Assembly (NCBI GenBank): GCA_021498095.1
Contig: JAIZWK010000001.1
Span: 3,330,001-3,362,000, forward strand
Direction of reading: 5' to 3'
DNA length: 32,000 bases
Source: Candidatus Harpocratesius repetitus
Lineage (GTDB): Archaea; Asgardarchaeota; Lokiarchaeia; Sigyniarchaeales; Promethearchaeaceae
The notes beneath the pieces were generated by a model, which was not told the origin of the DNA, ran no database searches, and saw only the letters and a list, made by a program, of their open reading frames with translations. Positions 1 through 27,129 of this stretch are shown piece by piece (position 1 is the stretch's first letter; every line of letters begins with the position of its first letter). The translations under genes and the position numbers were made by a program.

Positions 1-119
1 TTTCTAAAGTTTATCTTTGCCGACTGAAATAATTCTTGGATAAGTTTGATTATTGTCGAAAAATGAAAGATTAAAATGGAAATTCTGTCAAAAATAAAGA
101 AGTTGCTAGAATCTCATAA
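1..119 (+). repeat. Partial copy (cut by window edge) of a dispersed ~297-bp MITE-like non-coding element
   Basis: 1-119 equals the reverse complement of 26774-26892 with no gaps and 7 mismatches (positions 12, 44, 59, 80, 86, 112, 116), i.e. 112/119. Confidence 0.92.
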
Positions 120-17707: not shown

Positions 17708-17884
17708 ATTAATCACAAATCACCTTGTAAAAAATTTTTCAAAATTCTTAAAGATTTTTTGATATTAAAAATTCAAATTATATCAAAAAAATATTCTACG
17801 TAATATTTTGCACTATCTTCCAGTTTAAAGTTTTTGTCTGTTTTAAATACAAGAAATATTTACTATTTTAAATATAATTTTATT

Positions 17885-17902
17885 TTTTAAGAGCTATTAT
17901 TA
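17885..17902 (+). repeat. Segment 1 of the disrupted MITE-like copy (left of IS630)
   Basis: TTTTAAGAGCTATTATTA aligns without gaps to the reverse complement of 27055-27072 (14/18). The call rests on colinearity with segments 2 and 3. Confidence 0.7.
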
Positions 17903-17988
17903 GAGTCTTTTGACTTTTAATTTTTCGACTAATTAAACTCACCTAAATACGTTAATTTTTCAATTTTGATTTATTAGATAAATTGATC

Positions 17989-18402
17989 ATGGTTGAACGC
18001 GTTTGGGTTCATATTCCCCAACCAATCAAAATTAATGATGAATTAAAAAACCAAATAAATGAAATTGTCACTAAATTTATCAAAAAATCAGAAAAACTCG
18101 CCAAACTAACGCATAAAGTAAAAATAACACGAGGAAGGATATACATTACCTATTTATATGAAGTTCCATTAGAACATCGTGCCCGTAAAATAGAGCCACT
18201 GATAAATGGGAAATACGAAGAATTTATTTTTGCGAGAATCACTTTATTTGAAGAAAAATTGACACATTGCACCGCCGATTGGCAACGCCACAACCTAAAA
18301 TGGTACACAGTTCATGAAGGAACTTTAGAAGACTGTTTAAAGTATATTGAAAATGACTTTGGTCCATTTGGCTATCCATTTGATTATAAAGTTATGAATT
18401 AG
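17989..18402 (+). CDS. IS630 passenger protein, DUF3024-like
   Basis: Lies wholly between the IS630 inverted ends, convergent with the transposase (11-bp overlap of 3' ends). FARIT...WQRHNLKW...TLEDCLKYIEND resembles DUF3024 as recalled; family call is inference. Confidence 0.65.
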   Translation: MVERVWVHIPQPIKINDELKNQINEIVTKFIKKSEKLAKLTHKVKITRGRIYITYLYEVPLEHRARKIEPLINGKYEEFIFARITLFEEKLTHCTADWQRHNLKWYTVHEGTLEDCLKYIENDFGPFGYPFDYKVMN

Positions 18403-19452
18403 TTCTATATTTTTCCAAATTACATCGTGATGCTAGTTTTTCATCATCTGAACTCAATTCGTGCAAAGTTTTGGATAAAGAAGATTGAAATTCTTCAAAT
18501 TTTTCATAAAATTCGTTGTATGTTGCTTTACTCTTTGCATCTTTCCAAATACCTTCGATCGGATTCAGATCAGGAGAATAGGGCGGTAAAAACTTTAATT
18601 TTAGACGATAATTGTTTATTTGTAACCATTCTTGAAGCATTTTTGCATGATGCGGTCGTGCATTATCTAAAATCATATAAATTTTATGATTTTCAGGATA
18701 TTGTGCAAGAATTCCGCGAAGAAATTGCCCAAAATTAACTGCGTCTAAATTTTTAATATATTGAAAATATCCGCGCCTTTGGATAGGATCAATTGCACCG
18801 ATTACATTTAACCGTTTTTTTCCGCTGTGTATTCGGAGAATTGGTTTTGATCCCTTTGGTGCCCATATACGACGTGGTTCGGGGGAAAAATAGAAGGAAC
18901 TTTCGTCTTGGAATAAAATCGATTCGTTTTCATTTAAGTTATTTACAAGCTCTTTCATTTCGTGTCGAAATTGATCTTTTTTTTTTCGTCTGCTTTTGCA
19001 GGCATTGGTCTTGGTACTAACAATGTGTAATCCCATCGTTTCATCATTCGCCAAACCCCTGAAATTGACATATCAATGTCATATTTTTTTTTTATATGTC
19101 CTTTTATGTCTTTTAAATGCCAATTACTAAAGGAATATCCTTGTTTTCGGGGAGATTGTTTAATATCTTTCTTAATTTGTTTTTCTTGTTCTTCCGATAA
19201 TAAAGAATAAACTTTTGCACGTTTTATGGGTTGTAAACCTTTCATCCCATCTTTATTCCATTGATGAATCCATTTCCTTACTGATTGAGGGGATGAATGA
19301 ACATGGAAGGCTGTTTCGAATGTAGATTTCCCTAAGTATAGTTGTATGACTGCAAGTATTTTTGTTTTTACTCGAGCATTCTTTTCTTGCTTATAATATT
19401 GCTCTAATTCATGAAAAGGAATATGTTTTATTATAAAAAGGGGTTTTCCCAT
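18392..19452 (-). CDS. IS630 transposase, two ORFs joined by a -1 frameshift (~353 aa fused)
   Basis: OrfA (19452-18955) has HTH/winged-HTH features (VRKWIHQWNKDG, WHLKDI). OrfB has the DDE triad FQDES, LDNA and LNPIEG. A10 tract at the junction. Confidence 0.93.
18976..18982 (-). promoter_or_regulatory. A_AAA_AAG -1 slippery heptamer
   Basis: In frame with OrfA (GAA AAA AAA AAG); a -1 slip yields ...KKK-DQFRHEMK in the DDE frame. The A10 run could alternatively allow transcriptional slippage. Confidence 0.75.
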
Positions 19453-19514
19453 AATTGTAGCGAAGAATCCAAGTGATTTAAAGGTGTCGAAAAATTAAAA
19501 ATCAAAAGACTCTA

Positions 19515-19533
19515 ACATTTGATAGGTTAATAA
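19515..19533 (+). repeat. Segment 2 of the disrupted MITE-like copy (between the two IS elements)
   Basis: ACATTTGATAGGTTAATAA versus reverse complement of 27036-27054 ACATTTGGTAGATTAATAA (17/19). Confidence 0.8.
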
Positions 19534-21088
19534 CATTCACTATGTAATTGATCCTTTTTCTTCTATTTAAGATTAATCTACTCATTTCTCCATGATAATA
19601 TTACTCCTTTCAATTCATGGATGATAAATATAAGGGATACCGATGATTTGAGCATACTCCAAGAAATTCATTCAATTCTAAATCCGCTACGGTAGAATCG
19701 TTTCTTTTAATTATAAATCGTTGTATCTGCCATATATTGTACAAAAAGCACCGTAATCCCATAGTATTCAGCCGGCTATTGCGATCTTGTACCTTCTGTG
19801 CAATGCCTAACCGATTCATTTCAGGAAATGCGATTTCTATTAACCATCTTTGGCGATAGAGATCTCGGATATAATTCTCATTGCCGTGTAGGGTTTTTAT
19901 GCCTGATTTTGAGCAGAACATAACAATTAAGGGAAAAATACGGCTGCTGGCGATTTGTTCATTGATCTTTTTATGATTAAAATCTTGAATGATTTTTTTT
20001 TAAATTAAAAGTGCGTTTAGCAACAAGCAATAGATCGAATTTAATGGGTGAAAATCCTTTCTTTTTTACGTATTTACCCTTAATCATACCTTTTCAGTAT
20101 CTTTTACCTACTCCATTTAAGTAGTTCATGATTTTTTGTTTTGTCTGCGCACATTTTCTTCCAGGTATAATCACGGTTATGTGCTTCTGCTAAAAGAACT
20201 TTAATATTCGTTTACGATAAAACCCTCGGTCAAGCATAGCATATTTTATGGAAAAGCCGTTAGAAACTAGCATCTGATGGACATTGTGAAACAAGGGAAG
20301 TTTATCTTGTCGCTTTTTAATTTTGAAATTTGCAATCATTTGATGAAAATCACCTGAAATAACAGAAAAACTAAGCGTACGATGAACTGTTTTTCCTTCT
20401 TTTTTCCGAAACAATACGAATCGTCTTTATTTTTCTTGCAAGGCGTATCAGTATAATCTGCTATTAACTTTAGATCTGAACTTATAATTTTCAGAGATTT
20501 GAGAATTAAAATATGTGCCAAAAGTACAGAATTCCAAAATTCTTCAATTAAATCTAACTTAGACAATGTTTGAAGACATCAAGAAAAAGCAGGTTGATCA
20601 GGGAAGAATCTCCGTTTTTTACCATTTGAAAATTTGGAAACTGAATATGATTGAAATGAAATATTAGCGCGAGAACACTTTTTTTGAATAATTTCTGATG
20701 TATGTCAGGGCGAAAGTCTTAATATTTGCATACAACATGCAAACAGAACGAAGACCGTGTAGGAAAAGCCGCTTCGTTTTGGAGGCAATTTTTGGAAAAC
20801 TAAAGGATCTACCACTTCCGCAATATCTGAAAGTAACTGTGGATTAATCTGATTAGGAATAATTTTTCCGATATCGGTGGTAGCCGATGGATTTCTCCGA
20901 AGATTTGAGGTCATATCCAAGGGTAAGAAAGCGTAGCTTTTAAATTATTCCCTTTATCTCTCAAAATTGTAATGTATCTTTGCAAAGAAGTAAAATATGA
21001 ACAATTCTACTGAATTTGAATCAAAATTAGGATTTTATAAAAATTTCAAGACAAGAAAATCTATAAAAAACCAATTACATCATTAATG
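19534..21088 (-). mobile_element. Decayed IS4-superfamily (ISH3/IS4-like) element, 1555 bp
   Basis: Imperfect 17-bp inverted ends CATTCACTATGTAATTG / CAATTACATCATTAATG (14/17). TTAATAA is directly repeated on both sides (19527-19533, 21089-21095), whereas the uninterrupted homologous site (27036-27042) has one copy. Confidence 0.85.
19610..20920 (-). pseudogene. IS4-superfamily DDE transposase pseudogene
   Basis: ADYTD, LDRGFY and YRQRWLIE motifs. Manual translation shows four in-frame stops (TGA 20705-20707, TGA 20579-20581, TAG 20190-20192, TGA 20094-20096) and two frameshifts in A-tracts (~20400, 19993-20001). Confidence 0.9.
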
Positions 21089-21187
21089 TTAATAAAAAAA
21101 TAAAAAGCATGCATAATTTACGCATTTACCAACATTCCATCCAAATTTGATTATTGTCGGAAAATGAAAGATTAAAATGGTAATTCA
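21089..21187 (+). repeat. Segment 3 of the disrupted MITE-like copy, with a 137-bp internal deletion
   Basis: 21089-21150 equals the reverse complement of 26981-27042 (61/62), and 21143-21187 equals the reverse complement of 26807-26851 (45/45). The two blocks share AAATTTGA. Confidence 0.93.
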
Positions 21188-21234: not shown

Positions 21235-21762
21235 TTACTTTCCTTCACTCTTCGCTACTATTAAGCGAGTTAATTCAATAAATGCTTCATCTACATTCGT
21301 GCCATCTTTAGCACTTGTCTCAATATATATTGAACCTTCATCTTCTGCGTAATCTCGACACTCATCGCGATCTATTACTTCTCCTACCTCAGGAATTAAA
21401 TCCAATTTATTGCCGATCAATACAAAAGGTATGTCTCCTGCAAATTGATTAACTTCTGCACGCCAATTTTTAATAGAACCAAAAGTTGAACTACGAGATA
21501 AATCAAATACCAGTAAAGCACCTGATGCACCTTTATAGAAGGTTGTCCGAATAAAAGAAAATCGTTCTTGACCTCCAATATCCCATATACTTAAAGTAGC
21601 GGTTTTTCCAGCGGCATATTCAACATTTTTTGTAAGGATATCAACACCTACAGTGAGTTTATAATCGCGTTCAAATTTAGATTTAATAAATCTATGAATA
21701 AGACTTGTTTTCCCAACAGCAGCAGGGCCACACAAAAGAATTTTTAATTTATATATGCTCAT
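21235..21762 (-). CDS. Rab-like small GTPase, 175 aa
   Basis: GPAAVGKTS, YKLTVGVD, WDIGGQERF, YKGASGALLVFD, NKLD, ETSAK; no prenylation motif; AGGAG upstream. Confidence 0.96.
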   Translation of the reverse strand: MSIYKLKILLCGPAAVGKTSLIHRFIKSKFERDYKLTVGVDILTKNVEYAAGKTATLSIWDIGGQERFSFIRTTFYKGASGALLVFDLSRSSTFGSIKNWRAEVNQFAGDIPFVLIGNKLDLIPEVGEVIDRDECRDYAEDEGSIYIETSAKDGTNVDEAFIELTRLIVAKSEGK

Positions 21763-26773: not shown

Positions 26774-27070
26774 TTAAGAGGTTCTAGCAACTTCTTTATT
26801 TTTGACTGAATTACCATTTTAATCTTTCATTTTCCGACAATAATCAAATTTATCCAAGAATTATTTCAGTCGGCAAAGATGAACTTTAGAAAATATAATT
26901 ATAGGTCGATTTTTGACTATTTTTATTCAAATTTTAGTAGGATTTGATAAAAAAAGTTCTAAATTTTTGATCGACAAATTTCAAATTTGGATGGAATGTT
27001 GGTAAATGCGTAAATTATGCATGATTTTTATTTTTTTATTAATCTACCAAATGTTGATAAAGACTCTTAA
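26774..27070 (-). repeat. Full-length copy of the ~297-bp MITE-like element
   Basis: Ends TTAAGAG...CTCTTAA (imperfect inverted ends, 14/18). Homologous to 1-119 and to the split copy at 17885-21187. No long ORF. Confidence 0.85.
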
Positions 27071-27129
27071 AACAAAACAAAAAAATCAAAAAAATCAAAA
27101 CAAAAATCAAAAAAAATCATAAATCATAA
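27071..27129 (+). repeat. A-tract low-complexity repeat (A4-7)TC upstream of the cupin gene
   Basis: ATC units end at 27087, 27096, 27108, 27118 and 27125. Confidence 0.6.

Follow-up and report, generated by a model that had tools for sequence, protein, structure and literature searches.

An intergenic spacer of Candidatus Harpocratesius repetitus with a degraded MITE copy and two insertion sequences: a probable neutral pile-up of mobile DNA

In the window (the whole stretch of 32,000 nucleotides that was analyzed), a degraded copy of a 291-bp repeat carries an IS630 and an IS4-like element. This arrangement probably reflects the usual accumulation of mobile DNA in a permissive intergenic spacer, in which the repeat has no recruiting role. 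We infer that its cause is neutrality combined with a loose preference for AT-rich or TA targets. By itself the locus is an ordinary nested-transposon locus, and its value is descriptive. It offers a clean, internally dated series: an element-free spacer in a congener, a MITE, a fixed IS and a polymorphic IS. It also documents TA-targeting MITE families and a still-moving IS630 in the near-closed genome of an Asgard (Loki-type) archaeon. Two earlier papers on this genome gave about 4% repetitive sequence and nothing further on repeats. The repeat family is named M1 here, and the family of the IS4-like element (IS4/ISH3 superfamily) is labeled F5. Coordinates are collected in Table 1.

Table 1. 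Features of the disrupted locus and of the other M1 copies, in window positions
Feature	Positions	Strand	Remarks
Third M1 copy, right part	1-116	+	Full copy extends 177 bp beyond the window edge (start at genome position 3329824)
Left M1 remnant	17888-17902	+	TA at 17888-17889, then M1 positions 1-13 (AGAGCTATTATTA); last two bases are the left TA of the IS630
IS630-family element, 1610 bp	17903-19512	-	27-bp inverted ends starting GAGTCTTTTGA; TA duplication at 17901-17902 and 19513-19514
Passenger ORF in IS630, 139 aa	17983-18402	+	Convergent with the transposase; weak DUF3024 match below cut-off
IS630 transposase, C-terminal frame, 220 aa	18392-19054	-	Pfam DDE_3, E = 2e-34; NCBIfam IS630 142 bits (cut-off 100)
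IS630 transposase, N-terminal frame, 165 aa	18955-19452	-	Pfam HTH_33 and HTH_32; NCBIfam IS630 80 bits, profile positions 3-131
A10 run (A AAA AAA AAG)	18977-18986	-	Within the 100-nt overlap of both transposase frames
Middle M1 remnant	19515-19533	+	M1 positions 14-32, 18/19 consensus matches; last 7 bp are the left TTAATAA
Pseudogenized DDE_Tnp_1 element, 1555 bp	19534-21088	-	IS4/ISH3 superfamily; ends CATTCACTATGTAATTG / CAATTACATCATTAATG; TTAATAA duplication at 19527-19533 and 21089-21095
Remaining disrupted M1	21089-21187	+	About 120-bp internal deletion near 21150; about 25 bp missing at the right end
Intact M1 copy, 291 bp	26777-27067	-	TA on both sides; paralogous empty site used in the sequence-only reading

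Both elements are bounded by target duplications, and 12 bp of M1 (19515-19526) separate the two duplications. An earlier reading made from the sequence only had given these coordinates and duplications, and both were confirmed in the sequence. Removal of the two elements with one copy of each duplication yields exactly the string proposed there. As had been claimed, it matches the intact copy (27019-27072, reverse-complemented) in a gap-free alignment. It fits the M1 family consensus better still, first with 10/13 matches, then with 18/19, and continuously from there on. The account of the disrupted copy needed two corrections: an internal deletion of about 120 bp together with the loss of the last 25 bp or so, and a target TA for the IS630 where the M1 consensus has CA. 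The target TA arose in the disrupted copy by C>T decay. The IS630 insertion sits in the left inverted repeat of M1.

For the 13-bp piece of M1 left of the IS630, free local alignment over 8 kb gave a better chance match. This search is uninformative because the piece is too short, and it was replaced by a test at the fixed position. Here, the match is significant: only 25 of the 136,746 intergenic TA sites (1.8e-4) resembled the M1 start as closely as the piece does.

The 4.36-Mb genome has 45 M1 loci, of which 29 are full length at about 91-96% identity. M1 makes up 1.7-1.9% of the non-coding DNA. Aligned copies have TA on both flanks, and their ends read (A/T)GAGCC… and …ACCTC(A/T). The family combines the features of a MITE: it is short and non-coding, occurs in many copies, is bounded by terminal inverted repeats and has TA on its flanks. 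M1 is a TA-targeting MITE of the IS630/Tc1-mariner type. Three such families (M0, M1 and M2), all with TA flanks and GAG-type ends, together contribute at least 130 TA-targeting MITE copies to the genome. The general features of M1 are those of the eukaryotic Stowaway elements and of RUP from Streptococcus pneumoniae. The likeness extends to the sister families M0 and M2, which share the end type, and to elements that abut at shared TAs and nest mutually. Unlike in Stowaway/RUP-type MITEs, a single variable base stands between TA and GAG at the M1-type ends, and no autonomous partner with M1-matching ends was found in the genome, where the likeness of the one IS630 is limited to the start GAG(Y)CTTT. 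In relatives, the surroundings of IS630 homologues were searched for TA-flanked inverted ends that might reveal an M1 parent; no matching ends and nothing else usable came of this. A collection with one genome per species, which possibly excludes the source genome, yielded no match to a 24-nt conserved core of M1. Compared as DNA with 40 relatives, two of the same genus being fragmented MAGs, M1 gave only chance-level short matches (E about 1e-4). Full-text literature searches turned up no publication that deals with Asgard MITEs. A reading of M1 as an RNA gene was abandoned because an Rfam search of the whole window gave no match and the single-strand fold of M1 was no better than that of shuffles (z = -0.6).

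The larger interruption belongs to the IS630 family, as seen from a DDE_3 transposase with an N-terminal HTH, a TA duplication and terminal inverted repeats. The 43-nt arms of these repeats are 86% complementary, with one mismatch in the first 27 nt. The element had been called intact. This holds for its ends and duplications, which are complete, and has to be qualified for the transposase, which is split into two frames at the A10 run. The C-terminal frame is -1 relative to the N-terminal one, and the run is identical in both genomic copies. The run is compatible with a candidate programmed -1 frameshift site, with a mutation or with a homopolymer error. With IS630 of Shigella sonnei and ISY100 of Synechocystis, the element has in common a DDE_3 domain after an HTH, inverted repeats, a TA target duplication and a size within the range of about 1.1-1.6 kb of IS630/Tc1-mariner systems. 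In contrast to both, its host is an Asgard archaeon, its transposase lies in two frames meeting at A10, and it carries a convergent passenger ORF, which makes it unusually long for an IS630. The genome has two DDE_3 genes, and this is its only full-length IS630-type element. In 40 related genomes, the nearest relatives found did not exceed 47% identity.

The F5 copy in the window has ten full-length siblings with 76-91% identity and duplications of 7-9 bp. It is a pseudogene: it shows two nonsense substitutions as well as two 1-bp indels, and its transposase frame is broken by 14 stops. The transposase of an intact sibling has 434 aa and matches Pfam DDE_Tnp_1 with 31.5 bits (cut-off 23). In NCBIfam its best match is ISH3 with 59.8 bits (cut-off 225), while IS4 scores 23.7 bits (cut-off 115), and both are below cut-off. 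The DDE_Tnp_1 transposase, the short inverted ends and the target duplication are shared with ISH3 and IS4. Duplications are 4-5 bp long in ISH3 and 9-12 bp in IS4, and F5 differs from both in its 7-9-bp duplications and its profile scores. Sequence comparison thus supports calling F5 an unclassified member of the IS4 superfamily, placed at superfamily level only, since the scores fall far below the ISH3 and IS4 cut-offs and the duplications are 7-9 bp. The F5 target sites share only a core TT...A(T/A) beside T- or A-tracts, and cores of this type are common in a genome of 31% GC.

The sequence-only reading had further suggested that the repeat acts as an insertion hotspot or a safe harbor. 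When IS-size loci were mapped genome-wide, 2-3 of the 53 lay strictly inside M1, against about 0.9-1.0 expected (P 0.06-0.26). Thus, the map revealed no clear enrichment inside M1. The IS junctions fall at differing M1 positions, and other families are affected similarly: the proportion of loci that are nested or abutted is 20% for M1, 9% for M0, 11% for M2 and 18% for a MITE derived from family F6. A repeat-specific M1 hotspot is therefore not supported. The weaker notion of a safe harbor, a neutral and insertion-tolerant site, fits the data. Within 30 bp of M1 we counted 5/53 IS-size loci against 1.1 expected (P about 0.005, discovery locus included), and 3/51 when the discovery locus was left out (P about 0.1, Poisson estimate). 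These proximity counts are small and include the discovery locus, and the P values were computed singly with four MITE families tested; the small counts leave room for a real insertion preference. At genome position 3407308, the end of an M1 copy adjoins an IS701-like element exactly.

Clustering of mobile elements is found throughout the genome. About 16 loci have two different element families at most 30 bp apart, compared with about 2.6 expected, as estimated from element count and intergenic length. M0 lies inside M1 twice, and M2 and a member of family F10 each lie inside the F6-derived MITE. Insertions hidden behind the truncated M1 copies elsewhere were also considered and rejected: no repeat of at least 500 bp adjoins these copies and no second half lies within 8 kb, pieces below about 20 bp being missed by this search.

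An IS inside a short dispersed intergenic repeat resembles the REP/BIME-targeting elements (IS1397, ISKpn1, IS621 and the Pseudomonas ISPpu9/10 type). In those systems nearly all copies sit at one position of the repeat. Here, in contrast, 1-3 of 10 F5 copies touch M1, at differing positions, and two unrelated IS families are involved. Of the ten F5 copies, a single one interrupts M1, another is joined to it at a different position, a third lies 19 bp beyond it, and seven are elsewhere.

We consider it unlikely that the M1 left arm (…GATTAATAAAAAAATAAAAATC…) is a true preferred target of F5, recognized by sequence or DNA shape in the manner of the bacterial REP-targeting elements and thus a family-specific hotspot. 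Contact with M1 loci is seen for 3/10 full or near-full F5 copies against about 0.2 expected (binomial P about 0.001). These are the copy in the window, one at genome position 1904934 that is joined to M1 position 47, and one at 4316278 that lies 19 bp beyond an M1 end. Two of the junctions share M1 segment 33-47, and F5 targets lie beside A- or T-tracts, one of which is present in the M1 left arm. However, this statistic was formed post hoc and counts the discovery locus; with that locus removed, 2/9 remain. The junctions also differ, being at positions 26-32 inside M1, at position 47 after a deletion, and outside M1. The other seven copies lie in DNA other than M1, and no insertion occupies the 29 full-length copies of M1. 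In the abutting cases M1 may have inserted beside the IS instead. A more far-reaching proposal has the ISH3-like family truly preferring the A-tract by TTAATAA in the M1 left arm, within an active system of Tc1/mariner and Stowaway-like elements whose MITEs channel insertions off genes; to this we give little credence.

It is very improbable that M1 belongs to the substrates of the IS630 transposase, either through an inverted repeat that the enzyme binds and inserts beside, giving self-type nesting, or as a non-autonomous derivative of the element. Such a link would agree with the TA flanks and GAG-type ends of M0, M1 and M2 compared with the IS630 start GAGTCTTTTGA, with the presence of a sole complete IS630-type element beside more than 130 such MITE copies, and with the insertion within the M1 left inverted repeat. 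The termini, however, are alike over about 8 nt only, and the extra base between TA and GAG in the MITEs has no counterpart in the IS630. The insertion is a single observation, the TA used is a mutation peculiar to the decayed copy, and TA is ubiquitous at 31% GC.

The order of events was addressed with three kinds of empty site: the intact paralogous M1 in the window, a short-read allele lacking the IS630, and a spacer from the same genus. An allele without the IS630 but with the IS4-like element exists in the source sample. There, a 17.8-kb short-read contig joins the left flank from 17900 to 19513, skipping exactly 1612 bp, which is the IS630 plus one TA. Beyond the joint the contig runs on for 30 nt and reaches 9 nt into the IS4-like element. 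In the same-genus genome G002, about 125 bp separate the orthologous CBS and GTPase genes, and this spacer contains neither M1 nor an IS. This supports an ancestral spacer without any of the three elements. Based on the intact M1, the IS630-less allele and the element-free congener spacer, the order was M1, then the IS4-like element, then the IS630, which is still polymorphic. The search for empty or singly occupied alleles had been proposed along with the view that the IS4-like element is the older of the two, and this view is borne out: the IS4-like element is decayed and present in the IS630-less allele, while the IS630 is polymorphic and 99.3% identical to its only sibling, a truncated copy with TA also preceding its intact end. 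Arrival of both IS as one composite unit was rejected, because a separate duplication flanks each of them and the allele without the IS630 still contains the IS4-like element.

For the pile-up that we favor, the following course is probable. An M1 copy would first have entered the spacer, about 125 bp long, that follows the 3' end of a Ras-like GTPase gene and borders on the promoter region of a CBS-domain gene. This immobile copy would then have decayed, losing about 120 bp internally and its right end, and acquiring point changes in the left inverted repeat. Next, the DDE_Tnp_1 element would have entered TTAATAA beside the A-tract of the M1 left arm, with a 7-bp duplication, and would have been fixed and then pseudogenized. 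Most recently, the only complete IS630 of the genome would have inserted by cut-and-paste into the C>T-made TA 12 bp away, an insertion that remains polymorphic in the source population. M1 would recruit no transposases in this course. Rather, dead mobile DNA in a permissive spacer would widen a neutral AT-rich target while selection purges insertions elsewhere, and the two insertions would lie near each other because the site costs the host nothing.

It is scarcely credible that a long-read scaffold artefact (a chimeric read or misplaced repeat) put the IS630 here and that only the IS4-like insertion is real. In favor of an artefact, the assembly is Nanopore/Canu-based (PMC8813620), the IS630-less junction is among the short-read contigs listed, and for 18167-19515 the contigs listed show only the variant of the truncated copy. 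Against it, a perfect TA duplication and complete inverted ends bound the element, its first 264 bp, unique in the assembly and absent from the other copy, have a short-read depth of about 12-15 against about 17 in the flanks (bins 17854-18107), and a contig end exactly k-1 = 30 nt beyond the joint is what a two-allele branch of the assembly graph is expected to give.

The window occupies positions 3,330,001-3,362,000 in a genome of 4.36 Mb, a single scaffold with 31% GC. This genome, of Candidatus Harpocratesius repetitus FW102, was obtained from a hydrothermal-rock enrichment as a Nanopore-based scaffold, and the organism was named for the ~4% of repetitive DNA in it (PMC11217426, PMC8813620). 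The repeat noticed in the sequence-only reading is a MITE, here named M1. BLAST with the intact window copy as query detected 49 M1 segments at 45 loci. Of these loci, 29 were full length and uninterrupted (~91-96% identity) and 13 partial; another MITE interrupts a further two, and the window locus is interrupted by two IS. The aligned copies defined a unit of 291 bp with TA at both flanks and the ends (A/T)GAGCCTTTATCAAC… and …GTTGCTAGAACCTC(A/T). A search of M1 against Rfam gave no match, and folding revealed no significant structure. The TA-plus-GAG end design is common to M1 and two further MITE families, M0 (~320 bp, ~54 copies) and M2 (~330 bp, ~36 copies), and parts of M2 are ~70% similar to M1. 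Among the genes of the window are those for Ras-family GTPases and for a D-aminoacyl-tRNA deacylase of the archaeal type. Ras-family small-GTPase genes (240-818 and 21235-21762) adjoin two of the three M1 copies of the window (1-116 and 21089-21187).

Two IS had been proposed to lie inside one M1 copy. When the two elements were removed, each with one of its two target-duplication copies, the predicted string was reproduced exactly. The reconstructed pieces corresponded to positions 1-13 (10/13), 14-32 (18/19) and 33 onward of the M1 consensus. The 13-bp left piece gave P = 1.8e-4 when tested at its fixed position; a free search with it was not significant. Two AAATTTGA repeats bound a loss of ~120 bp in the disrupted copy, whose last ~25 bp are also missing. 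The consensus reads CA where IS630 used TA, thus the target TA arose through decay of the window copy.

Features of the two elements inserted in the disrupted M1 copy (window positions)
Feature	Position	Strand	Remarks
IS630-family element	17903-19512		27-bp inverted ends; TA at 17901-2 and 19513-4
IS630 transposase, HTH part	18955-19452	minus	
IS630 transposase, DDE_3 part	18392-19054	minus	
139-aa ORF within IS630	17983-18402	plus	convergent with the transposase; 11-bp overlap of the transposase 3' end
IS4-like element	19534-21088		1555 bp; TTAATAA at both flanks

The IS630 transposase is split over two frames, the DDE_3 frame being -1 relative to the HTH frame. An A10 run (18977-18986, read A AAA AAA AAG) lies within their overlap. 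This arrangement would fit a programmed -1 frameshift, and a one-base homopolymer error in the run would look the same. Only two DDE_3 genes are present in the genome, the second in a 5'-truncated IS630 copy with 99.3% identity. Part of the 139-aa ORF is kept in this sibling; the match of the ORF to DUF3024 was weak (E = 2e-4, below cut-off). The IS4-like family comprises ten full or near-full copies of 74-91% identity with 7-9-bp duplications. Its intact members encode a 434-aa DDE_Tnp_1 transposase, for which the top NCBIfam match was ISH3, far under cut-off. In the window copy, two nonsense substitutions and two 1-bp indels result in 14 stops in the transposase frame. Target sites of the other copies have only a TT…A(T/A) core in common, beside T- or A-tracts.

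A 17.8-kb short-read contig of the source sample matches the left flank without differences and continues from 17900 directly at 19513; the 1612 bp that it skips equal IS630 plus one TA. Past the joint it extends for 30 nt and takes in 9 nt from the start of the IS4-like element. Thus, an allele with the IS4-like element and without IS630 exists. Another short-read contig spans the right junction of the IS4-like element with zero differences. For the IS630 stretch 18167-19515, only the variant of the truncated sibling was found among the short-read contigs listed. The first 264 bp of IS630 are unique to the window copy and have a short-read depth of ~12-15. Therefore, the insertion was read as polymorphic, and an artefact was set aside.

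In the same-genus genome G002, the CBS-domain gene (82% amino-acid identity) and the GTPase gene have orthologues that are ~125 bp apart, and the spacer between them contains no M1 and no IS. The spacer and the window share the motif TCTTCCAGTTTAAAGTTTT (window 17820-17838), which lies ~105-120 bp upstream of the CBS-domain gene and is conserved in three same-genus genomes (loci compared outside the window: L028, G002:C57; L029, G001:C99). This stretch is probably the promoter region of the CBS-domain gene, and every insertion at the window locus falls beyond it. Together, the IS630-less allele and the element-free spacer give the order M1, IS4-like element, IS630. The sequence-only reading had likewise taken the IS4-like element as the older one, which the allele retaining it and its accumulated stops corroborate. 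A comparison with empty or singly occupied alleles had also been proposed, and the contig and the G002 spacer provide them.

The same reading had regarded the repeat as an insertion hotspot. Repeat families were catalogued by self-BLAST, and loci of 900 bp or more were counted as IS-size (n=53). Non-coding, non-IS DNA amounted to 0.60-0.83 Mb, varying with the ORF threshold, and the share of M1 to 1.4-1.9%. Strictly inside M1 were two IS-size loci, or three if a copy whose end is fused with M1 at position 47 (genome 1904934) is included, versus ~0.7-1.0 expected (P = 0.04-0.26). Five were located within 30 bp of M1 versus ~0.9-1.2 expected (P = 0.002-0.007, discovery locus counted). Besides the two window elements and the fused copy, these comprised an IS4-like copy that lies outside M1 at a distance of 19 bp from its end (genome 4316278) and an IS701-like element directly adjoining the end of an M1 copy (genome 3407308). 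With the discovery locus removed, 3/51 remained within 30 bp (P ~0.1, our Poisson estimate). Thus, the counts did not bear out a hotspot.

For the IS4-like family alone, three of the ten copies were in or near M1 (P ~0.001), a suggestive excess, with three different junctions. A specific affinity of this family for the left arm of M1 could produce such an excess, and we consider it unlikely. The fused copy, at locus L004 (G000:C1:1903504-1905192), is an IS4/ISH3-like copy without its first 124 bp that is joined directly to M1 position 47, and its far-end flank includes AAAAAAATAAAAAT, a sequence similar to the M1 A-tract. This suggests that DNA was deleted or rearranged at an older insertion associated with M1. 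A second pile-up beside an M1 copy was observed at L003 (G000:C1:4315965-4318802). Here, 19 bp separate M1 from an intact IS4/ISH3-like element that has a TTAAAAAT duplication, and 27 bp further on lies a fragment whose IS6/IS240-like transposase ORF is truncated.

Genome-wide, two different mobile-element families were nested or at most 30 bp apart at ~16 loci, versus ~2.6 expected by our estimate from ~230 elements in ~0.61 Mb. M0 was found inside M1 at two loci, L007 (G000:C1:479203-479817) and L008 (G000:C1:2359469-2360078), at the same M1 position (~176-179). The two M0 inserts are 97% identical; either M1::M0 was mobilised as one composite element, or M0 inserted on two occasions at one site. 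Further examples were M2 or an IS (family F10) inside a MITE derived from the repeat family F6, and a pair of M2 and M0 with a single TA in common. Nesting involved 20% of M1 loci, 9% of M0, 11% of M2 and 18% of the F6-derived MITE; the rate of M1 is unexceptional. The structure of the window locus is real and well dated. As its cause, build-up in the selectively neutral, AT-rich DNA of a permissive spacer is most consistent with the data. The locus adds a new case, in a little-studied lineage, of a type of event already known.

Two further repeat groups were observed. F4 is a family of 3.2-4.0 kb at 11-15 loci, 82-90% identical (e.g. G000:C1:2913519-2917512). Its ORFs (971 and 316 aa) had no match in Pfam or NCBIfam, and the family possibly represents a mobile element not described before. 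Furthermore, ~25 elements of ~600 bp (e.g. G000:C1:6116-6716) are internal-deletion derivatives of a 1.63-kb IS. They keep the parent ends 1-446 and 1481-1631, and the parent (L011, 1484868-1486498) encodes a 460-aa transposase with weak IS6/IS240 similarity.
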